A DNA stretch of 31,015 nt from a virus (Duplodnaviria > Caudoviricetes). Below, in pieces: positions 4,332-31,015 of the stretch. Each line of letters starts with the position of its first letter. The first letter of the stretch is position 1. The stretch is from positions 1-31,015 of the IMG/VR virus record IMGVR_UViG_3300048892_000042. One strand, given 5' to 3'. The position numbers and the translations under genes were made by a program. Under the pieces are notes generated by a model. The model made no database searches, was not told the DNA's origin, and saw only the letters and a program-made list of their open reading frames with translations.

Positions 4332-4360
4332 AAGAAAAAGGCGGGGCGGTTTCCCGCCCC
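4332..4360 (-). terminator. Rho-independent terminator
   Basis: Minus strand GGGGCGG-GAAA-CCGCCCC followed by GCCTTTTTCTT. Confidence 0.75.
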
Positions 4361-4374
4361 ACCAGAGGCTTTCC

Positions 4375-5391
4375 TTATTCGGCAGCGGCAGCCGGATACT
4401 TCTGACCCGCCGGATAGGTCGGGTCGGGCAGATGCTTGCCGGCGGCGATGATCTCCTGCTTGCGGGTGTTGGTCACCCCGCTTTCGGCCAGGGTCATTCC
4501 CCGGATCACCATGCCCATCTCACGCTGCGGCGTGACCGTATCGGCCGGCTTCCGATGGTCCTCAATGTACATCTTGGCAACGCAGAGCGGCGCCTTGTCG
4601 CTCGAAAAGTCCCCCATCTGCAACTCGTCGAGCCGCTCGATCAGCCGCGTTTCCGGCCATTGGTGCCGCAGGCAGACGCCGGCGACCTTGGCAGCTGCCT
4701 TGCCTTGCAGCAGCGGATCGTTGGCATCCTCGACCGAGGCGCGGCCAATCTCCAATGCCCGGGTCAGGAGCGCGTCGTTGCTGACGATCTCCTTGGCGAT
4801 TTCGCCGGGCGAATGGAAACTGGTGGAAGGAATGTGCGCGCCCTTCTCGTAGGACCAGATACCCTGGAGGAGCGCTTCCTTCTCTTTGGCGTTGGTGACG
4901 CCGATCAACGCCGCCACGTCGGCCCCGGCGCGGGTCTTGCCGCAATCGAGCGTTGCGACATCGGATTTCGACATGCCGAAGTAGATCGACATGGTCAACT
5001 CCGTGCCCGAGTAGGCTTGCGCCCCCAGGCGATGCCCACCATCGGCGACGCTGCCATCATCGCGATAGAAGCCATAGCCTTGTGGCGTGCGACGCCAATC
5101 GCCGTCGCGCATCATGCGGGCCAGAACATCCGTCCAATCCGGCCGCCAGCTCCGGTTGAACGTATTGTGGTGGAGGAACAGCAGGGCGGCCATGCCGGGC
5201 GTGATCTTGGCAAAGCCCAGTTCCGGCTCGTCGGTGCAAGCCTTCGCCCGCTCGCACAGTTCGGCGACCGCCTTGACATCGACCTCGGTCGCTGCCTCGG
5301 CAACGCGCTGAATGTGCGCCACGATCCGCTCGCCGACCGACAACTGCCGCTCGGGTTGCTGGAACGGGGATACTGGTTCCGTAGTCATCAC
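4375..5391 (-). CDS. ParB/Srx-fold (DGQHR-like) phage protein
   Basis: ITP.MA..L..N..NR....A..M..G.W....G.V.DGGHRL.A....D.GK.R motif series. Confidence 0.7.
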   Translation of the reverse strand: MMTTEPVSPFQQPERQLSVGERIVAHIQRVAEAATEVDVKAVAELCERAKACTDEPELGFAKITPGMAALLFLHHNTFNRSWRPDWTDVLARMMRDGDWRRTPQGYGFYRDDGSVADGGHRLGAQAYSGTELTMSIYFGMSKSDVATLDCGKTRAGADVAALIGVTNAKEKEALLQGIWSYEKGAHIPSTSFHSPGEIAKEIVSNDALLTRALEIGRASVEDANDPLLQGKAAAKVAGVCLRHQWPETRLIERLDELQMGDFSSDKAPLCVAKMYIEDHRKPADTVTPQREMGMVIRGMTLAESGVTNTRKQEIIAAGKHLPDPTYPAGQKYPAAAAE

Positions 5392-6814: not shown

Positions 6815-6886
6815 ATGGCCGCCTGGCGCATCGTCATAGACCGCAACGATTGGGTGGAGAAGCGGGGCGAGCACCAACGTGAGTGA
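6815..6886 (+). CDS. 23-aa leader peptide
   Basis: GAGGG SD, MAAWRIVIDRNDWVEKRGEHQRE, stop overlaps next GTG. Confidence 0.35.
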   Translation: MAAWRIVIDRNDWVEKRGEHQRE

Positions 6887-7199
6887 CCGATGGCCTATGC
6901 CGCCTGGTTTGAATCAGGCGAAACGAGTTTTCACGAGGCCGGCGATAACCGCTTTAACTGTAACTCGCGATGGCGATGTGCTGCATATCGATTTGATACC
7001 CGGCGCTGACGGTCCCGACACCGAGGGCGAGGAAGTAACGCCCGGCGTGGTGCTCCTTTATGACGGGCACGGCTGGCTGATCGGCATCGAGATCAACACC
7101 TCAATTCTGCGCGAGGCCGGCATGAGCCGCTGGAGCGACCCGCCCGAAGCCGATGAGTTCTACACCCGCCCCGGGAAGCGGGAGCGCGACGATGATTAA
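6879..7199 (+). CDS. DUF2283-like protein (putative antitoxin)
   Basis: GDVLHIDL...EEVTPGVVLLYDGHGWLIGIEI matches recalled DUF2283 pattern D.LYI.L...EV..GV..DYD..G...GIEI. Confidence 0.7.
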   Translation: MSDRWPMPPGLNQAKRVFTRPAITALTVTRDGDVLHIDLIPGADGPDTEGEEVTPGVVLLYDGHGWLIGIEINTSILREAGMSRWSDPPEADEFYTRPGKRERDDD

Positions 7200-7452
7200 A
7201 CAAAGCATGAAGATCGGCATGACCCCGCCGCATCCCGGCATGTTTATCCGCGATGAAATCTTGGCCGAGTTGCACCTTACGCTGAACGACGCGGCCGCGA
7301 TTCTGAACGTGCGGCGAGCGACCCTCTCGAATCTGGTGAATGGCAAGTCAGGGCTATCGCCGGAGATGGCGCTACGGATCGAAAAGGCGTTCGGCGTCGA
7401 CATGGACATGCTGCTGCGGCTGCAGGCGTGGCATGAAGGCCACTGGCCATGA
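7192..7452 (+). CDS. higA: HigA-family addiction-module antitoxin (orphan)
   Basis: PPHPGMFIRDEIL...AA.ILNV.RATLSNLVNGK..LSPEMALRIEKAFG..LL.LQ. Confidence 0.9.
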   Translation: MIKQSMKIGMTPPHPGMFIRDEILAELHLTLNDAAAILNVRRATLSNLVNGKSGLSPEMALRIEKAFGVDMDMLLRLQAWHEGHWP

Positions 7453-9981: not shown

Positions 9982-10382
9982 CCGGCGCACTTGTTCTCGC
10001 CCCCGGCGATCCGCCGTTGACCTTGGCCGAGGTTGCCGCGCACTACCGGATGACCGAGCGGCAACTGCGCCAGGTGATCCGCGAGCGCGCGGTGGAGGTA
10101 TTGCGCGTCGGGCATACCGTGCGGTTCGATGCGCACGCACTTAATTCGTTGGAGGAGAAACTTAGGTGCCACGCAAGTCAGAAGGACTCCGGGTCGTCCG
10201 GCGCGCCGACACCGGCAGCCTCACGATTGAGGGGACGGTCGCGGGGGAGCGCATACGAAGACGCGCTCAAAGCGACAATGCGCGTCTCGCAAAGGAAGAG
10301 GCCGCCGCGCTCGAAGCCGAACTGCTCCGAACCAAATGGCACGGGCCGCGTCGTGGCGCTCGCCCCTTTGCCGAGGCCGTAA
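9978..10382 (+). CDS. Excisionase-like HTH protein
   Basis: LTLAEVAAHYRMTERQLRQVIRE...RVG..VRF; ATG at 9978; immediately upstream of and overlapping the integrase. Confidence 0.75.
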   Translation: MTGALVLAPGDPPLTLAEVAAHYRMTERQLRQVIRERAVEVLRVGHTVRFDAHALNSLEEKLRCHASQKDSGSSGAPTPAASRLRGRSRGSAYEDALKATMRVSQRKRPPRSKPNCSEPNGTGRVVALAPLPRP

Positions 10383-11230
10383 AGCTCTACCTTGAGGCGG
10401 AAGAGCGCAGCCCCGGCACCGGCCGCCGGCTGCACCTGATCCTTGAGGCGATGGGCGACATCAAGCTGGGCCAGATCGACCAGCAGCTCGTCAACCGTAT
10501 CGCCAAGCGCATCCTACCGCCGGACGCGGCGCCGTCGACCAAGAAGCGCGGCATCATCACGCCGCTGCGCGCCGTCCTCAACCTGGCGCACAAGGAAGGC
10601 TGGTGCGACCCGCCGCATTTTGTGATCCCGAAGGAGCGGGAAGGGCGCACCAACTATCTGTTGCCGGAAGATGCCGTGCTGCTTCTCGCGGCCTGCGGGC
10701 ACTCGATGCGGATGCTGGTCGAGCTGGTGCTCGGGACCGGCGCGCGCATGGCCGAGGCGCTCGAACTCGACTGGCGCGACCTCGATCTGGTGGGCGCGCG
10801 CGCGAGCTTCTGGCGCACCAAGGGCGGCAAGCCGCGCCACGCGCATCTGCCGCCGGGGCTTGTCGCGGCTCTCGCCAACCTGCCGCACAAGAAGGGCGCG
10901 GTGATCCGCCGACCGGACGGGCAATCCTATGTCGACCGCGACCGGCAAGGTGGCGGCCAGATGAAGACGGCATGGCGGCTGACCAAGGCACGCGCCGGGA
11001 TCGACCCGGATCTGACGCAGCACGATCTGCGGCACACCTGGGCGTCATGGCACTACGCGCTCTATCGCGACCCGCTCAAACTCAAACTGGAGGGCGGCTG
11101 GGCCTCGCTCGATCAGGTCGAGCGCTACGTCCACCTGATGCCGGCCGGGCACGAGGCGGCGATCGAGGCGTTCTGGCGTGGTGACCGGACGGCTGAGCAG
11201 TGGCGCGGAGAGCACGCCACAACTGGCTAG
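10166..11230 (+). CDS. int: Tyrosine recombinase/integrase
   Basis: Catalytic set TGARMAE (R), TKGG (K), HDLRH, GGW, RYVH (Y). Confidence 0.95.
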   Translation: MPRKSEGLRVVRRADTGSLTIEGTVAGERIRRRAQSDNARLAKEEAAALEAELLRTKWHGPRRGARPFAEAVKLYLEAEERSPGTGRRLHLILEAMGDIKLGQIDQQLVNRIAKRILPPDAAPSTKKRGIITPLRAVLNLAHKEGWCDPPHFVIPKEREGRTNYLLPEDAVLLLAACGHSMRMLVELVLGTGARMAEALELDWRDLDLVGARASFWRTKGGKPRHAHLPPGLVAALANLPHKKGAVIRRPDGQSYVDRDRQGGGQMKTAWRLTKARAGIDPDLTQHDLRHTWASWHYALYRDPLKLKLEGGWASLDQVERYVHLMPAGHEAAIEAFWRGDRTAEQWRGEHATTG

Positions 11231-11270
11231 CTGCCTCACGAAATAAATCACCTTGATGTCGATTTTCCTC

Positions 11271-11300
11271 CTTGACGGAAATCAACACCATGCCTATTTC
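11271..11300 (+). promoter_or_regulatory. Sigma70-type promoter
   Basis: cTTGACG-N17-TATTTC. Confidence 0.6.
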
Positions 11301-11340
11301 TTGCGGGACCGGGCCGATGGTGGGCCGCAGGAGAAATCAG

Positions 11341-11568
11341 ATGAGCCGCTCGACCGACCTTTTCACACACCGCAGCCTGCACCGGCTGAAACGAGTGCAT
11401 TGGCAGCCTCACTATGAGGGCGAGGCCTGTTTGCAATGGCGCCCCGAGTGCGGCCTCTGGCGCATGACCGGGCCACAAGGCCCCTTCGAACTGCCGGGCG
11501 GCGTCGACCTGGAAACGATCAATCAAACCTGGGATCGCTTTGTTGCAGTCGCGAACGGCCAAGCATGA
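11341..11568 (+). CDS. Hypothetical protein (75 aa)
   Basis: AGGAG SD before ATG 11341; ATGA-coupled to HTH gene. Confidence 0.6.
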   Translation: MSRSTDLFTHRSLHRLKRVHWQPHYEGEACLQWRPECGLWRMTGPQGPFELPGGVDLETINQTWDRFVAVANGQA

Positions 11569-11819
11569 CAGCCGACGAGTTCCGCGCCACCCTCAAAGCC
11601 TTAGGCCTCCGCCAGCGCATTCTGGCGGAGGCGCTTGGCGTTGAACCGAACACTGTCAGTCGATGGGCCAAAGGCAAGGTCACAGTGCCGCGCTACGCCG
11701 AACTGTGCCTGATACTGCTTGCCGCGATCAGCGAACGGAGGATGCGCGACATTCTGGCGATGCCCGCATTCCGACACGTTGCTGACACGGGAAACGCCGG
11801 GAAAGCCGCAACCGTTTGA
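11565..11819 (+). CDS. XRE-family HTH regulator
   Basis: MTADEFRATLKALGLRQRILAEALGVEPNTVSRWAKG..VP. Confidence 0.8.
   Translation: MTADEFRATLKALGLRQRILAEALGVEPNTVSRWAKGKVTVPRYAELCLILLAAISERRMRDILAMPAFRHVADTGNAGKAATV
11773..11790 (+). repeat. Integrase arm-type site (left), 18-bp direct repeat
   Basis: GACACGTTGCTGACACGG, identical to 11971-11988. Confidence 0.75.
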
Positions 11820-11850: not shown

Positions 11851-11897
11851 CCCTCCGAAGGCAGAGGTCGTACGTTCGAATCGTATCGGGTCCGCCA
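11851..11897 (+). other. attP core: 3' half of tRNA-Arg(CCG)
   Basis: CCCTCCGAAGGCAGAGGTCGTACGTTCGAATCGTATCGGGTCCGCCA: anticodon loop CCG, T-arm GTTCGAATC, CCA end; no 5' half. Confidence 0.88.
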
Positions 11898-12309: not shown

Positions 12310-12396
12310 CCCGCCCTGAAAAGGGCGGGGCCGGCATCAGCGCGTCCAACGCCGATGGCCGGCCCCTAATCATTCGACGTTGGAGGCGTCAAATGA
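12310..12396 (+). promoter_or_regulatory. Structured translation-inhibitory leader 1 (symE/SymR-like architecture)
   Basis: Hairpins 12310-12329, 12327-12366 and 12370-12396 (SD in loop, AUG in stem); linker CCTAATCAT. Confidence 0.65.
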
Positions 12397-12545
12397 CTGC
12401 GGCCATATACAGCCGAATTGCGTCCGCGCGTCTAGCCGCGGCCTTTCTTGCCCTGCTGCTGGCGCTGCCGGCGACCTACGCGATGAGCAAAGATAGTACC
12501 GACTGCCTGCGCATCGTGGTCACGCAGCTCGACCGCAATCGATGA
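12393..12545 (+). CDS. 50-aa single-TM peptide, candidate type I toxin (not in ORF track)
   Basis: GGAGG SD; MTAAIYSRIASARLAAAFLALLLALPATYAMSKDSTDCLRIVVTQLDRNR. Confidence 0.6.
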   Translation: MTAAIYSRIASARLAAAFLALLLALPATYAMSKDSTDCLRIVVTQLDRNR

Positions 12546-12722
12546 TCAATGGGCGGCGAGGCAGTGGTCGAGAACCCGGTTGGCGAGCGCCATGCGCTGC
12601 TCCATCTGGGCCGACAGGAACCACAGCACCATGCCAATAAAGCCGGCGTTGATGAGCACCAGCAGAATGAACGCCGGCGGCAGGGCGTCGATCAGGCTGC
12701 GGCCGAGCGCCGAGATGGTCAT
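12546..12722 (-). CDS. 58-aa membrane protein, possibly holin-like (not in ORF track)
   Basis: AGGGA SD; MTISALGRSLIDALPPAFILLVLINAGFIGMVLWFLSAQMEQRMALANRVLDHCLAAH. Confidence 0.7.
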   Translation of the reverse strand: MTISALGRSLIDALPPAFILLVLINAGFIGMVLWFLSAQMEQRMALANRVLDHCLAAH

Positions 12723-12796
12723 GGTGTCCCTGCTATCAAAGAATTGGCCGGCGCTATCAAGCCGGCGCCGCTGAGATTGCCCGATATAGGGAGCGA

Positions 12797-12866
12797 CGCC
12801 GGGCGGGTATCTGAAACCCGCCGCGGCGCCTAACCACCACCGAACGTATGAGGTTCGATCATGGCT
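12797..12866 (+). promoter_or_regulatory. Structured leader 2 (same architecture as leader 1)
   Basis: Hairpin 12797-12828, linker CCTAACCAC, hairpin CGAAC-GTATGAG-GTTCG over the SD, then ATGGCT. Confidence 0.6.
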
Positions 12867-13316
12867 TACCGGAGTTTAACCCTCGCCGCCTTCGCTTGCA
12901 TCGCCCTCGCCGGGCCAGCCCTCGCCGCCGACGAAATCCGCCCAAGCGGGCCAGCGATAGCCCTTAGAGTCAGCGGGGGGACGATGCTTCAGTCGCCGCG
13001 ACCGTTGGCGAGCGTGTTTATCGCCAACCCTGATATCGCCAATGTCCAAGTGCCAGACCAAGGCAACAAGGATGTGCTTTTTGTGTTTGCCAAAGCGCCC
13101 GGCAAAACGACCCTTTACGCCATCGATGCCGACGGGCGCGTGGCGTTGAGCCAAACCGTCGAGGTAACGGGGCCGAGAACCGTGCGCGTGATGCGCGGCA
13201 ACACGTCGTATACTTGGTCAGAGGCTCACGAACATGCGCCCAATCTGGCCGACTTGCCGGCAGGCTCGACGGTGACGATGCCTGCCGGGGCCGTGGCCGG
13301 GGCCGCGGCGAACTAA
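12861..13316 (+). CDS. Secreted Tad/Flp pilus secretin (CpaC/RcpA) N-terminal domain protein
   Basis: Signal peptide ending ALA-A; PRPLASVFIANPDIANVQV...LFVFAKAPGKTTLYAIDADG matches the T2SS-T3SS_pil_N pattern; no secretin barrel. Confidence 0.85.
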   Translation: MAYRSLTLAAFACIALAGPALAADEIRPSGPAIALRVSGGTMLQSPRPLASVFIANPDIANVQVPDQGNKDVLFVFAKAPGKTTLYAIDADGRVALSQTVEVTGPRTVRVMRGNTSYTWSEAHEHAPNLADLPAGSTVTMPAGAVAGAAAN

Positions 13317-13384: not shown

Positions 13385-14416
13385 TCACGCCACCTTGGCT
13401 TTCAGCTCGGCGAGCTGTGCCGAGAGTTCCTTGACGGCATTGACCAAAGCGAAAATCAACGGCCCGCTGTCGATCGTGCTAAAGCTGACCGGCTCGGCCG
13501 CGGCCTGTTCGGTATCGGGGTCGGTCGGTGCCCAAACCCCCTCACCGACAAGCTCCGGCATCACGGGACGGGTCGCCTCGGCATCGAGGCCATAGAACAC
13601 GCCATCCGTCGGCAACCCCGCCTTACCACTGTAACTGTATTGGATCGGTTCGAGTTGCAGCACTTCGGCAAGCCCGCTGTCATAGCTGGCGATATCACTT
13701 TTCAGCGCGGGGTCGGAAGGCGCCACCCAGGAGCCGCCACCGGGCTTGGTCGCGGTGCCGCCGAGGATGGTAAGATTGCCGCTCGCATCGAGCGAGTTCC
13801 CACCAGCCGTCGTGTAAAAAGTCACTTGGCCGGCGCCGGCGGAAGAACTGCCCCAGCAAACAATTCTTGGATTGTTGGTATTAAAGCCAAGCGCGACGCT
13901 TTCAGTCGCCGCCCCGGTTGGGGAGGTAAGTAATTGCCCCAAAATATACGCGCCGACGCCGAGATTGGCGTTTACCGTCAACGTGCCGGTAATCGTGCCG
14001 CCGGCCGTCGGCAGGTACGGCCCGCCGGTCACATAGTTCTGATTAGCCGCCGCCGTCACCCGCCCCTTGGCGTCGAGCGTCAGCCCCTGGAAAGTGCCGA
14101 CGTTGCTGTTGACCGTCGCCAGCGTCGCGGTGATCGCGGTTGCACCCGAGCCGGTCAGATCGCCGCTCAGCGTGATCACCTGATTATTCAGCAGATAGCC
14201 CTGCGCCTTGACGAACGCGGTCGTGGCGATCGACGTGTCGTTATCTGCGGTGGCGGGCGTCGGCGCTTTCGGGTCGCCGGTAAAGCTCGGCGAGTCGAGC
14301 GGCGCGCCGCCGCCGGCAGCCGCCGCCCACTTGGCACCGTCCCACTGCCACGACTTGCCGGCGCTGGTGAATACCTGCCCGACCGTCAGGCCGCCCGGTC
14401 CCGGAAAATCCAGCAT
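13385..14416 (-). CDS. Tail fibre with C-terminal S74 intramolecular chaperone
   Basis: MLDFP..GQVF..W.WDG.KW N-terminus; PLDSPSFTGDPKAPT...IATTAFV repeat; SD..LK..I...PELV...LVNAVKEL coiled coil. Confidence 0.88.
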   Translation of the reverse strand: MLDFPGPGGLTVGQVFTSAGKSWQWDGAKWAAAAGGGAPLDSPSFTGDPKAPTPATADNDTSIATTAFVKAQGYLLNNQVITLSGDLTGSGATAITATLATVNSNVGTFQGLTLDAKGRVTAAANQNYVTGGPYLPTAGGTITGTLTVNANLGVGAYILGQLLTSPTGAATESVALGFNTNNPRIVCWGSSSAGAGQVTFYTTAGGNSLDASGNLTILGGTATKPGGGSWVAPSDPALKSDIASYDSGLAEVLQLEPIQYSYSGKAGLPTDGVFYGLDAEATRPVMPELVGEGVWAPTDPDTEQAAAEPVSFSTIDSGPLIFALVNAVKELSAQLAELKAKVA

Positions 14417-27043: not shown

Positions 27044-27666
27044 CGGGCGAGCCGCGACAGCAGCGGGTAGAGATCGCAGCCGAGGGCGCTGCCGTCGCCG
27101 AAGCGCAGCGTCAGCATGCCCTCGGGATCGACTTCGAGCGCGGTCGCCACCGGCCCCGGCGGCCCGCGCTCGCCCCGCTCGCCGGGCTTGCCTGGCTTGC
27201 CGTACCCGCCCTGCGCCGCGAGCATCTGCCAACCCTCACCGGGGCACGGACCCGGACCATCGACCCGCGCCGCAAAGCTCGCGCCATTGAGCATCACAAC
27301 GTCGAGCGCGCGATACTCGGATGACGGGTTCCACGTCCCACGGATCGTGAAGCTGCGCCCTTCGCCGCCCGGCTCCCCTGGCGGTCCAGGAAGCCCCTGG
27401 ATGCCCGGTTCGCCGGGTGGGCCTGTGATAGCCTCGCCCGGCTCTCCACGCTCTCCACGCTCGCCGGGCGGCCCTGGCGGGCCATCCTGTAGCGATGCCA
27501 GCCGCTCGGCGACGGCGCGCTCGATCCGCAGCTCGAATTCGGCGCGGTCGGCGCGCAGCCGCTCGGCCTCAACGGTAAAGGCTAGCTTCAGGTCGCGCTC
27601 GATGCGGGCGGCTTGCGCGCCTAGCTCGCCGCCGAGCGCGATGGCGAGTTCATCCAGCGCCGGCAT
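27040..27666 (-). CDS. Collagen-like head-associated protein
   Basis: Coiled-coil N-terminus, two Gly-X-Y runs, RGTW..Y..LDVV...GASF.A...GPCPG.GWQ domain. Confidence 0.8.
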   Translation of the reverse strand: MPALDELAIALGGELGAQAARIERDLKLAFTVEAERLRADRAEFELRIERAVAERLASLQDGPPGPPGERGERGEPGEAITGPPGEPGIQGLPGPPGEPGGEGRSFTIRGTWNPSSEYRALDVVMLNGASFAARVDGPGPCPGEGWQMLAAQGGYGKPGKPGERGERGPPGPVATALEVDPEGMLTLRFGDGSALGCDLYPLLSRLAR

Positions 27667-29020
27667 CGATCATCCTCCGAATCTCCGCAATGCCGCCAGC
27701 CTTTGCCGCCGCAGTGTCGACAGGTTTGTTTTCGTTGGCGCTGGCGGCTGACGCGGCAGGTTGCGCCGCCTGCGGCGAGGGCGGCTGCATGTCGCTGCCG
27801 TAGCTGAGCGGGACGACCTGCTGCTGGACCCGCGGTTGCTTTCCGACCCCGCCCGGTACTGCCGGCAGGTCTTCGGATGCGCGCGCCTCGTCGGGACTGT
27901 AGATGCCGGAAATGACACCGCGCGCCAGCGCCTCGATGCGCTCCCGGTAGGCCGAGCGGAGCAGCGCCCGGGTATCGAGTTCGAGATATTCGTCCGGCAC
28001 GCCGCGAAGCTGGAAGAGTTGCCCGAAGGCTTCCTCGATGTGGTTCAGGGTAAAGCCCAGCCCGGTGCCGATCCACGACTGCATCAGCAACTCGGTGTTG
28101 GCGAAGGTTGTGCCGCCGATGCCGAGGATTTGCAGCGGTATCCGCATCGCCAGCGCGATGTTCTGATCGCTCATCTTGAGCATTTCGGCGAGCTGCGCAT
28201 CGACCGCGCTTGTGGCGATCGACTGCGCCTTTAGTCCGTTCGTCAGGATCGGGGTGCGACCGGCATTCTCGCTCTGGGTTTGCTGGTCCCACCATTGGCG
28301 CAGTTCCTGCGCCTGCTCGCGCTTCAGCGGCAGATCGGTAGTCAGCAGAAAGCTCGGCCGCGCCTGGTTCAGATAGAACGCGATCTGTTGATTGAGCGCC
28401 GCATCCGACATTGCCAGATCCAGCGCCGCCGCCATGATCGGGCTCGCGCCCTTGAGCGGATGCCGCGGCGTATGCAGCCGAATATGCAACACGTCGCGCG
28501 CCGGCACCGGATACGATAAATCCAGCCGCTGCTCGATGATCTCGTTGCCCTGTAGCGAATAGAAGATGCTGCCGTCCTCGGCCACCGTCGCCGAGCCTTC
28601 GCGCATCAGGTGCAGTTCAATGATCTCGGCGCGTGCGTTGCGCACCGCGAGCGCAAACGTCTCGCCGCGCTCATACAGCCGCCGCGTCAGGTTCAGCAAA
28701 AAATCGCTGATGCTCTGGTAATCGTTCGGCCGCCGCATGATGCGCGACAGCGCCGAATTCGTCACCCGCTCGCGCCCGCCATTCGACAGGCTGCGCCAGT
28801 GGTCGCCGGGACACATCGGCACCGTCTGGCTGTAAGCGCTGATGCACGCCTCCAGCATGGCGCTGCGCCCGCCATAGGGCTGCACGTTTTGGCCGTTTTG
28901 CCAGTAATTCCACGAACTGCCGGCGGGCAGCCAGCCGTGGGAGAGGAAATACGGCCCGGGACGGTATTGCCCCTCGGCCGCCCGCCCCCACGGCAGCATT
29001 CGGGTGAGCCAGTTCGCCAT
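27650..29020 (-). CDS. HK97-family portal protein
   Basis: RPNDYQS..DF, DVLHIRL, G.SPI, NAG...IL..G, IA...RIP...LG, S.DEAR..E.LP. Confidence 0.93.
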   Translation of the reverse strand: MANWLTRMLPWGRAAEGQYRPGPYFLSHGWLPAGSSWNYWQNGQNVQPYGGRSAMLEACISAYSQTVPMCPGDHWRSLSNGGRERVTNSALSRIMRRPNDYQSISDFLLNLTRRLYERGETFALAVRNARAEIIELHLMREGSATVAEDGSIFYSLQGNEIIEQRLDLSYPVPARDVLHIRLHTPRHPLKGASPIMAAALDLAMSDAALNQQIAFYLNQARPSFLLTTDLPLKREQAQELRQWWDQQTQSENAGRTPILTNGLKAQSIATSAVDAQLAEMLKMSDQNIALAMRIPLQILGIGGTTFANTELLMQSWIGTGLGFTLNHIEEAFGQLFQLRGVPDEYLELDTRALLRSAYRERIEALARGVISGIYSPDEARASEDLPAVPGGVGKQPRVQQQVVPLSYGSDMQPPSPQAAQPAASAASANENKPVDTAAAKAGGIAEIRRMIDAGAG

Positions 29021-29328
29021 CAGGTGCGGGTCTGATAACCGCTGCGGCCTTGCTCCGGCTTCACGTCGCGCTGTTGCCGTTCTTTTTCTTCGCGCTCACG
29101 GCGCTGGTGCGCGGTCTCGCCGTGGCGCGCTTCGGGCGGCGGCTCGGCGGGCGCTTCCGCGGCACCCTCCTTGAAGGCGTCGGCTTCCTCCTGTGTCGGC
29201 GTCGGCTGTTCCGGCGGCGACGATACCCGCTGGGCAATTTCCTTGTCGGTCTGCTCTTTCTGGGCTCGCTCCTGATCCTTCCGGTCGGCTTCCGGACCCG
29301 GCGGTGTGCGGCGTGTGCTGTCCATCAT
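29020..29328 (-). CDS. Charged disordered head-module protein
   Basis: GGAGG SD; PTPTQEEAD motif, GYQTR end. Confidence 0.65.
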   Translation of the reverse strand: MMDSTRRTPPGPEADRKDQERAQKEQTDKEIAQRVSSPPEQPTPTQEEADAFKEGAAEAPAEPPPEARHGETAHQRREREEKERQQRDVKPEQGRSGYQTRT

Positions 29329-29348
29329 TTCCTCCGTTGTGATTCGGT

Positions 29349-29753
29349 TTACGCCGTCGCTACGGCAATGGCATTGGACGGCGGCGCGGCGGTTGACCCG
29401 GCGCCATTCGTCGCGGTGACGACGCAGGTCATGCTGTGTCCGGCGTCGCTTGCCGCCACGACGTAGCTGTTGCCGCTGCCGGCAACATCGGCGCCGTCGC
29501 TCTTCCAGGCATAGGCATAGTCGGTCGGCTGGCCGCCCCAGACGCCCATCGTACAGGTGAGCGTGGCGCCCACCACGCCATCGCCCCCGAGATAGGGCAC
29601 GTCGAGATTGCGCGGCGGCGCCAGCGCGCTCGGCTCTTCGCCGTGCACCTGCTCCTTGATGTAATCGGCGCGCACCTGCGACGGTTGCGGCATCGGGGCC
29701 GGGCCTTCGTCATCGCGCGCGGTGCGGTCGCTTCGCATGTGCTTTTCCTCCAC
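29349..29753 (-). CDS. Ig-like domain virion protein
   Basis: P.N..VP...G...VG.TLTCT.G.W..QPT.Y.Y.W...Y.V...D.G....C.VTATN..GS. Confidence 0.75.
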   Translation of the reverse strand: MEEKHMRSDRTARDDEGPAPMPQPSQVRADYIKEQVHGEEPSALAPPRNLDVPYLGGDGVVGATLTCTMGVWGGQPTDYAYAWKSDGADVAGSGNSYVVAASDAGHSMTCVVTATNGAGSTAAPPSNAIAVATA

Positions 29754-29758
29754 GAGCA

Positions 29759-29778
29759 GGCGGGGCCGAAGCCCCGCC
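29759..29778 (-). promoter_or_regulatory. C(UUCG)G tetraloop hairpin after capsid gene
   Basis: GGCGGGGC-TTCG-GCCCCGCC without U-tract; stabiliser or weak terminator. Confidence 0.55.
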
Positions 29779-29785
29779 CGTGGCT

Positions 29786-31015
29786 TTATCCCCAGTTCAC
29801 GCCGGAACCGATGAACTGCACCATGCCGCTGCGCCGCATTGCCCAGTTGACGTTGGCCAGCATGCGGATCGCAATCTGCGCGGTTTGGAACATCGATTGC
29901 GTCGGGGTCGCCAACACGCCCGAGCCCTGCGCGCCGGACGCGATGTTGAGTGGCGTCGTGTCCTCCATGTGGATGGTCGCGACTTCACTGACCTCGAACT
30001 CCGGTGCGCCGGACACACTGACGAAATCCGCCGCGTCGATCATGTAAACCGCGCCGGCCGCGATGCTGGTCGACGTGATGACGGTAAACATGTCGGTGAA
30101 TTGGGTTGACCAGCCGAACGGCGCGCCGGCCGGCCCCGGTGCGAACATCAACTGGTTGCGCTGCGCCGGATTCATCAGCAGCACCAGCTTGCGGCCGGCA
30201 TTCACGGCGTAAAATGGACCCGTCAGCTTGGCGAGGTCGCCGAGAAACGCCGCATAGCCGCCACCCGCCGTTGCGGTGAGGGTGGAGACGCCGTTGGTGA
30301 GGCCCGCCGGGCGCGTCGTTGACACCGCCACATTGTCGAGCAGCAGCGCATCGATGTTGATCTGCGTGTCGTCGATGATGCTGGTGCGGATCAGCGCCTC
30401 GATGTCGGGGTTGGAATAGGCCGCAATCTCGCGGCTGAACACCGAGATGCCGCCGACCTTGTGCGGGTAGAGCGTGATCGACGTGGTGCCCAGCCGGCGC
30501 ACCGGGATCGGCGCCGCTTCCGCGACGAACGAGCCGCCGATCGAGGGCGTTGCGGCGCGCGACGGGATTTTGATTGCCCCGGCATTCGGGCCGAAGGTCA
30601 GCGCCGTGCCGAGTTGCGCGAGCTTAGGAAACACCTGGTTGGGCATCAGGCTGTTGACGAACTCGCCCTGGCCCAACTGCACCAGTTCGGCCGCCCATCC
30701 CGCGGTTGTCGTAGTCGCGCCGGCGATCGCCGCGCGGGTGACGACCGCGGTCTGCTCGTCGTCGGGATAGCGCTCGCTCAGCACAGCCTCGATCGGCAGG
30801 CCGCGGGCGACCGCGATAAACCGCGCGACGCAGTGATTGGCGTATATTGCGCCCGGCGAGCGTTCCTTGACGGGCAACCCGAGCGGCCGGCGGTTGATCG
30901 ACGGCGCGCTCAGCGGCGGCAATACCTGCTGCTCCGCGGCGGCACGCACCGCCAGCGACCGCTCGGTCGCCCGCAACGATGTCAGCCGCTTTTCCTGCTC
31001 GGCAATCTCGGCATT
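29786..31015 (-). CDS. HK97-fold major capsid protein (5' part outside window)
   Basis: Frame open to window end with coiled-coil segment; FVAE..PIP, L.P.K.GGI..FS.E, RPAGL.NG, SMFQT...AIR...NW..RR. Confidence 0.93.
   Translation of the reverse strand, partial: NAEIAEQEKRLTSLRATERSLAVRAAAEQQVLPPLSAPSINRRPLGLPVKERSPGAIYANHCVARFIAVARGLPIEAVLSERYPDDEQTAVVTRAAIAGATTTTAGWAAELVQLGQGEFVNSLMPNQVFPKLAQLGTALTFGPNAGAIKIPSRAATPSIGGSFVAEAAPIPVRRLGTTSITLYPHKVGGISVFSREIAAYSNPDIEALIRTSIIDDTQINIDALLLDNVAVSTTRPAGLTNGVSTLTATAGGGYAAFLGDLAKLTGPFYAVNAGRKLVLLMNPAQRNQLMFAPGPAGAPFGWSTQFTDMFTVITSTSIAAGAVYMIDAADFVSVSGAPEFEVSEVATIHMEDTTPLNIASGAQGSGVLATPTQSMFQTAQIAIRMLANVNWAMRRSGMVQFIGSGVNWG

Follow-up and report, generated by a model that had tools for sequence, protein, structure and literature searches.

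In this study, we describe a gene of a temperate tailed phage whose product appears to combine, in one small protein predicted to be exported, the two halves of a pilus-assembly joint: an Ig-like domain resembling the N-terminal domain of CpaC, the Tad secretin (the "socket") and, behind it, a predicted beta-hairpin resembling the C-terminus of CpaB (the "plug"). The gene lies at 12861-13316 on the plus strand of the window, by which we mean the whole 31,015-base stretch of DNA that was analysed, and encodes 151 amino acids from an ATG preceded by GAGG at 12850-12853. We propose that the protein uncouples CpaB from CpaC, reducing pilus-dependent phage entry, a reading for which confidence and doubt are, in our judgement, evenly matched.

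The socket (aa 32-103; 12954-13169, plus strand) matches PF13629, T2SS-T3SS_pil_N, with an E value of 7e-17 and 61.3 bits against a gathering cut-off of 23, which bears out the assignment of a pilus secretin N-domain made in an earlier note on this DNA. That note had also read the product as a signal-peptide protein without a barrel, and this holds: no secretin barrel family matched the 151-aa protein, and a Sec signal peptide is predicted at aa 1-22 (12861-12926, plus strand), read by eye from Arg at position 4, a hydrophobic stretch at 8-22 (Kyte-Doolittle 15-mer, 2.12) and A-L-A at 20-22. A lipoprotein was ruled out, since C13 is not conserved. What does not hold is that the protein consists essentially of the N-domain, given that about 40 conserved residues follow it, comprising the plug (aa 106-120; 13176-13220, plus strand) and an L-x-D-L-P-x-G-S tail motif (aa 129-143; 13245-13289, plus strand), each found in 54 of 55 family members. 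The tail motif is absent from the CpaI proteins that we read, and the idea that it repeats the linker and hairpin of CpaB was rejected (E 0.16 against CpaB tails). With 151 residues, and a stop in all complete homologues, the protein falls outside the CpaC/RcpA secretins, which have BON and barrel domains and about 450 residues or more; it does have the domain composition of CpaI, namely a signal peptide (here predicted), a single pil_N domain and C-terminal strands. No PHROG family matched it. In an AlphaFold2 model built from 140 sequences (a model from 32 was poor, with a pLDDT of 45), the socket forms a beta-sandwich (pLDDT 80-94) beside which lie two hairpin strands, 107-112 and 115-120 (pLDDT about 58-67), and the tail at aa 129-143 takes no defined shape. 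The socket fold is Big_2-like (Z 9.3), with viral BIG2 matches as well; sequence and fold searches matched only generic Ig-like folds and no solved Tad N-domain.

The protein belongs to a conserved family carried by soil phages. A single-sequence search returned 34 relatives and a profile search 55 clusters at 138 bits or more, followed by a gap down to 69 bits, at and below which secretin N-terminal fragments begin. The mature part is under purifying selection (median dN/dS 0.28; 82 of 105 pairs usable), as are the hairpin and tail taken together (0.30), and Cys is absent from all 55 mature proteins. The survey of phage-borne homologues that the earlier note had called for found the gene on 17 distinct contigs, and every one of the 13 that exceed 3 kb carries homologues of the window's phage genes. 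On these 13, the gene is convergent with tail genes in 10; two end too soon, and one (L086) has it at another site. Because the early regions vary among these phages, the slot of the gene is kept across mosaic genomes. The claim that the window holds no other tad gene was upheld with 65 long ORFs, same-strand and drawn from four tad loci of hosts, as queries, which gave 45 and 47 matches in two control tad loci and matched nothing in the window or in the 13 phage loci except the pil_N ORF itself. In plasmids there were 53 matches, none of which covers as much as 80% of the query; of the 30 matches listed, those with an annotation are secretins. No longer or fused form of the family was found, in a weak search that also missed known CpaC. 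Neither the 151-aa protein nor the 728-aa tail protein of the phage had a match among 50,697 cultured phage records.

The record is 85% complete and represents most of a temperate tailed phage, with early genes followed by an integrase and then, on the minus strand, genes for capsid, portal, connector, tail tube, tape measure and tail fibres. The tyrosine integrase (10166-11230, plus strand; PF00589, E 5e-17; phrog_1) is followed by a 98-aa ORF and an HTH gene (11248-11819) and, about 600 nt from its stop, by a probable attP core at 11851-11897 (plus strand). In 6 of the 401 genomes that belong to G001's class, this core matches the 3' half of a tRNA-Arg(CCG) with 1-2 mismatches, and ARAGORN calls tRNA-Arg(CCG) at five of the seven matching loci. 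G001, a record of the alphaproteobacterium Vineibacter sp., is the only named candidate host. A pil_N secretin is present in five of the six genomes with the matching tRNA, and three also have a short CpaI-like protein. The pil_N gene lies about 1 kb from the attachment core and is convergent with the last tail gene, a tail fibre with an S74 chaperone (13385-14416, minus strand), whose end is 68 nt away; its place between attP and the tail fibres, against the late operon, is therefore as the earlier note described it. On the other side of the gene, a 58-aa hydrophobic ORF of the late strand (12546-12722, minus strand), which had no family match and whose homologues follow tail genes in two related loci (L087 and L174), may be a late, holin-like gene, and late transcription toward it would run antisense through the whole pil_N gene. 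Elsewhere in the record, an HTH protein that matches a PHROG of plasmid antitoxins comes after a DUF2283 ORF (6879-7452; kept in L001, L002 and L016), possibly a toxin-antitoxin pair of the early region. In phages, the portal gene usually precedes the capsid gene; on the late strand at 27650-30976 the order is reversed, with capsid, two small ORFs and then portal.

The plug shares a short motif with CpaB. V-x-V-x-RG occurs at 108-113 of the phage protein, and RG occurs in the last 25 residues of 60 of 74 CpaB-like ORFs upstream of cpaC (identified by position, length and motif), mostly as V-x-V-x-RG; CpaI proteins have a like motif after their pil_N domain. An 11-column profile derived from CpaB ranked aa 106-116 first among the 42 proteins of the window (20.7 against 8.7; 0 of 1000 shuffles), and missed the hairpin of one homologue (L172). 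With an 18-column profile, the hairpin came second of 9080 windows, behind a tape-measure window (12.7 against 14.0). Profile-profile comparison gave E values of 6e-5 to CpaB tails, 1.2e-3 to CpaI tails and 0.09 to reversed tails. All these profile tests are to some extent circular, the tails having been selected for the motif and trimmed at it.

For the socket, two origins have to be weighed, CpaC and CpaI. Mean identity is 38-42% (best 51%) to CpaC N-domains and 25% (best 29%) to 12 CpaI proteins, and two trees both exclude the phage clade (SH-aLRT 100) from that of the CpaI proteins (96-98), the large one a quick tree made without L235 and 20 CpaC rows and the small one made without L234 and L226. 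An AU test on 37 rows and 77 columns, its CpaC rows collected by likeness to the phage family, did not reject phage and CpaI proteins as one clade (p 0.071). These comparisons suggest that the phage protein is a CpaC-derived socket with a CpaB-type plug, a CpaI-like design that was probably reached independently. Among 30 genomes near G001, pil_N was found in 22 and a short CpaI-like copy in only two of these; this lineage therefore appears to rely for the most part on direct CpaB-CpaC coupling, as far as such incomplete genomes tell.

In addition to its unusual product, the gene has an unusual leader. An antisense RNA of about 80 nt is predicted from folding and pair counts on the minus strand at 12785-12866, where it would cover the ribosome-binding site and start codon. 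Read from 12866 to 12785, this strand forms two hairpins joined by GUUA, with an anti-Shine-Dalgarno sequence in the first loop, and its fold is far more stable than that of the sense strand (z -5.8 against -1.7; E. coli SymR, -5.3). Rfam RF00043 scored 46.8 bits at 12794-12868 and between 34 and 40 bits at six of eight related loci, every score falling short of the 55-bit cut-off; the strand of RF00043 was deduced from the GUUA linker that PMC8136791 describes. In a set of 21 leaders, 97.9% of the cells are paired and two-sided changes occur in 4 of 23 pairs, a count reached in 2 of 500 shuffles, a rarity that relatedness inflates; in the second helix, 38 cells are G-U when the antisense strand is folded, whereas folding of the sense strand would make only 2 cells G-U. 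A predicted -10 box, TAAACT (12873-12878, minus strand), falls within codons 5-6 of the gene. Its TA...T pattern is present in all 27 leaders, 19 of which came from the protein search and so were not selected for it, and codon 6 is CTA or TTA in 27 of 27, against 7 of 228 other Leu codons. That codons 5-6 hold this box would explain the fixed MAYRIL start of the protein. The ends of the RNA are estimates, since its -35 region is weak and its terminator tail has few U residues. The design, two hairpins on the strand facing the ribosome-binding site and start codon and a predicted promoter in the first codons, is that of SymR- and RepX-type antisense RNAs, and the predicted RNA likely limits the amount of protein made; it may keep the protein low in the lysogen. 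About 100 nt upstream, a TATCAAG element (12755-12761), seen by eye in most leaders, is possibly part of a promoter or operator; a sigma-70 scan found no sense promoter.

A second cassette of like design precedes the gene at 12315-12545. It comprises a predicted antisense RNA (12315-12398, minus strand; z -6.0) that would cover the beginning of a hydrophobic ORF of 50 aa (12393-12545, plus strand), which had no family match and is kept in five related loci (L002, L003, L004, L006 and L016). A model of the phage RNA matches the L016 copy (E 0.002) and not that of the window. We regard the pair as a candidate type I toxin-antitoxin-like module.

The leader and signal peptide together behave as a cassette with exchangeable payloads, most of them unrelated to pil_N. 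A 24-base leader pattern identified 17 viral loci, in which the payload is a pil_N protein in six, a small Cys-containing protein in five, a predicted-helical Cys protein in two and a peptide of 13-19 residues in four. In L002, the identical 22 signal residues lead into an unrelated Cys-rich protein. L001 and L002 are 96% identical over the leader and signal peptide and 98% identical over 9.8 kb of tail genes; because they share tail genes and not payload, there is no fixed link between the pil_N gene and the tail of its phage. The gene can be classed as an accessory moron: it belongs to a temperate phage, can be exchanged and has a control region to itself. Looser versions of the leader stand before integrases and numerous ORFs of unrelated kinds (37 of 105 distinct ORFs in a partial scan), on which basis we read the leader as a generic dose-control part. 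Metagenome runs (4 of 24) gave patchy contigs: X5 covers the left arm at a depth of about 21 and hardly covers the pil_N gene, and one X7 contig joins 12932 to 13285 over only 25 letters, patterns that are hints of, and not evidence for, other payloads at the site.

The leader occurs in other settings that deserve mention. It covers integrase-like start codons in L176 (4448-4531) and L086 (7221-7302), which suggests that integrase translation is under antisense control in these phages. It precedes a 13-aa ORF in L179 and L184 and a 19-aa ORF in L178 and L182, and in L179 the ATG that opens a repeat-rich protein of 125 aa overlaps the stop of the 13-aa ORF, much as when two genes are translationally coupled. 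L009 carries tandem copies (4351-4434 and 4614-4698), the first before a 63-aa signal-peptide ORF. Three payloads (L173, 3007-3381; L183, 3007-3279; L185, 3007-3339) form an exported-type four-cysteine family with a proline-rich linker and no Pfam, NCBIfam or Atlas match; two of them end near an RG motif.

Could the other payloads also be plugs? A hydrophobic-x-hydrophobic-x-RG core is present in three of the seven other long payloads (0.04 expected), although two of the three are homologous and the pattern was written after the payloads had been seen. It is found in none of five exported-type ORFs behind more distant leaders, the CpaB hairpin profile gave no significant score for the seven (68 to 929 of 1000 shuffles), and no family or Atlas match was obtained for the other payloads. 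The shared core is a lead only. In its widest form, our proposal would be that an antisense-gated, portable cassette delivers interchangeable periplasmic CpaB-type hairpins that plug the Tad secretin N-domain, with the pil_N, Cys-rich and helical payloads as independent solutions; we think this improbable, but if it were true the cassette would constitute a periplasmic, Tad-directed exclusion system.

For the pil_N protein itself, the mechanism we favour is as follows. The predicted signal peptide would direct export to the periplasm at low dose, in the lysogen, upon induction or early in infection. There, the protein would compete at the CpaB-CpaC joint that couples the secretin to the alignment ring: its hairpin would fill the groove of CpaC, its socket would capture the CpaB hairpin, or both, and its extra C-terminal motif would block proper bridging. 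Tad pili would be cut or retuned as a result, and fewer or uncoupled Tad machines would deny the receptor to other phages, giving superinfection exclusion or protecting progeny. The suggestion of the earlier note, that a secretin decoy interferes with the pilus, survives in part. A phage-borne, CpaC-derived domain with predicted export does sit in a moron slot, but the decoy is not a bare one, since a CpaB-type plug has been added. Several considerations weigh against jamming. The antisense leader, as predicted, implies repression. Competition by the hairpin may be insufficient to part RcpC from RcpA in Pseudomonas, because RcpC lacking its hairpin still co-purified with the RcpA N-domain (bioRxiv 10.1101/2024.10.29.620805). 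Furthermore, the same socket-and-hairpin design is a required positive factor in CpaI, and the P-FimU mimics of Pseudomonas prophages work as pilus parts.

The last point makes a working adaptor the strongest rival, since CpaI shares the design and P-FimU is a functional prophage pilus part. Here, the protein would stand between CpaB and CpaC as CpaI does and keep the pilus functional while retuning it in conduit length, dynamics or adhesion; variants of the idea are a phage-proof replacement in the style of P-FimU and lysogenic conversion of attachment. The order of parts is that of CpaI, both predicted binding faces are under purifying selection, the AU test leaves CpaI kinship standing, the dose of P-FimU is likewise held to the host level, and the scarcity of short CpaI-like copies near G001 would allow a phage to supply one. 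Against this, the socket resembles that of CpaC, the extra conserved tail is present, and most of the CpaI proteins read have, after the hairpin, a Cys pair that is missing here. Moreover, a periplasmic part is not known as a surface to which phage tails bind, so a silent swap of one would not obviously protect. We consider an adaptor unlikely, if somewhat less so than the wide cassette proposal. Uncoupling, which we continue to prefer, also has to be set against readings that separate the protein from the Tad machine. The leader has the layout of symE/SymR, its payloads are exchangeable and mostly unrelated to pil_N, and the second cassette with its 50-aa hydrophobic ORF lies 300 nt upstream, all of which would suit a module of the type I toxin-antitoxin-like or envelope-stress kind, in which the antisense RNA silences an exported protein that damages the envelope once released and whose pil_N origin is incidental. 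Integrases, nuclease-like ORFs and short leader peptides, however, also have leaders of the same type, and the gene that RepX controls serves replication, so the leader marks dose control and not toxicity; the conservation of the CpaB-type motif also speaks against a module of this kind, which strikes us as quite unlikely.

Less likely again is an adhesive or structural Ig-like protein without a role in Tad, serving as a virion decoration or as a polymer in which hairpin and groove join head to tail. The fold does match the Big_2 domains found in S-layers and in phage tails (Z up to 9.3), viral BIG2 matches exist, and a socket with a plug permits polymerisation in principle. Nevertheless, a signal peptide is predicted, the gene is oriented against the late operon, unrelated payloads replace it in a phage with the same tail, and its sequence affinity is to CpaC and not to phage Ig families. 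In favour of a functionless stray piece of cpaC, or an artefact of assembly, it can be said that several database labels name family members CpaC, but 55 clusters of constant length with intact frames under purifying selection, with their own leader and their own C-terminus, leave this explanation hardly credible, and parts of the region are found in other soil and root metagenomes, which argues against an artefact. No RNA data set was listed among those containing parts of the region, a silence that speaks neither for nor against expression.

If uncoupling is correct, phages competing in soil alphaproteobacteria make a target of the CpaB-CpaC joint, and the protein offers a natural probe for a joint whose Tad models rest largely on AlphaFold predictions, as well as a dominant-negative tool for Tad pili. 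The phage anti-pilus proteins described so far act on type IVa motors or chaperones or replace the tip pilin; the targets of Zip and Aqs1 are cytoplasmic. The cassette is of interest in its own right, since exported payloads are swapped behind a fixed dose-control leader whose predicted promoter is written in signal-peptide codons. As to novelty, the earlier note knew of no description of such a mechanism, and this needs qualifying: the architecture of a lone secretin N-domain is that of CpaI, and phage pilus mimics and inhibitors, like the SymR/RepX type of leader, are already known. In the open-access literature, we found no paper on a phage-encoded secretin N-domain, a CpaI mimic or a Tad-directed exclusion protein, and to this extent the claim stands: no phage mimic of the Tad joint was found. 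What appears to be new, judged from sequence, is the combination of a periplasmic Tad-joint mimic with a swappable, antisense-gated cassette.

The leader is closest in design to SymR and RepX. RepX of R1162 (RF00043) is reported as a 75-nt antisense RNA with a GUUA linker over the ribosome-binding site and start codon of repA (PMC8136791), and the symR promoter is reported to lie inside symE, where silent changes in CATTCT kill it (PMC1891008). All three, the phage RNA as predicted, are two-hairpin antisense RNAs of 75-80 nt over these two elements; the phage leader is like symR in its predicted promoter within coding sequence, with a CATTCT stretch in several phage homologues, and like RepX in its GUUA linker. 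It is unlike both in that its target is a predicted exported protein, and in sequence it lies below the RF00043 cut-off; SymR, for its part, was not found by the model of the phage RNA. Among phage proteins that affect pili, Zip and Aqs1 tune or block pilus assembly and deny the receptor by binding PilZ or the extension ATPase (bioRxiv 10.1101/2024.03.05.583538; PMC13436744), and for Zip it is reported that receptor masking can protect progeny (bioRxiv 10.1101/2024.03.05.583538); they are not exported mimics of the machine, as the phage protein is predicted to be. P-FimU of F10-like Pseudomonas prophages is such a mimic, one that blocks phages while it remains functional as a pilus part at a dose held to the host level, and the accompanying survey of other phages gives only PilA-like proteins in its main text, with further phage pilus-like proteins listed in its supplements (PMC12952977). 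P-FimU and the phage gene share pilus-part mimicry, a variable moron and a conserved upstream region that sets the dose, although P-FimU is a type IVa surface tip pilin and the phage product a predicted periplasmic Tad assembly part.

The nearest relatives in architecture are the Tad components themselves. In Pseudomonas, the hairpin of RcpC, on which Tad function depends, has been modelled in direct contact with the N-domain of RcpA (bioRxiv 10.1101/2024.10.29.620805); the CpaB hairpin is described as completing the sheet of the secretin N-domain, directly in Pseudomonas and by way of CpaI in Caulobacter, mostly from AlphaFold models with support from mutants. The phage socket resembles the CpaC/RcpA N-domain and the phage plug the CpaB/RcpC hairpin, but here both are parts of one small soluble protein that has no barrel, BON domain, membrane anchor or oligomeric ring. 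In the Tad machine of Caulobacter, whose pili are the receptor of phages such as phiCbK, cryo-tomography places CpaI as a bridge between CpaB and CpaC; the C-terminal hairpin of CpaB is predicted to sit on CpaI and the last strands of CpaI on the CpaC N-domain, and deletion of cpaI leaves secretins without the alignment complex, CpaI being needed for Tad assembly (PMC12637624, PMC13170226). Unlike CpaI, the phage protein is phage-borne, encoded away from any tad/cpa locus behind a leader predicted to be under antisense control, and it has a CpaC-like socket, no Cys pair after the hairpin and the additional L-x-D-L-P-x-G-S tail. The two proteins are alike in other features: both are of similar size, and in both a signal peptide, predicted for the phage protein, is followed by a lone pil_N domain and C-terminal strands with a motif of the V-x-V-x-RG type.
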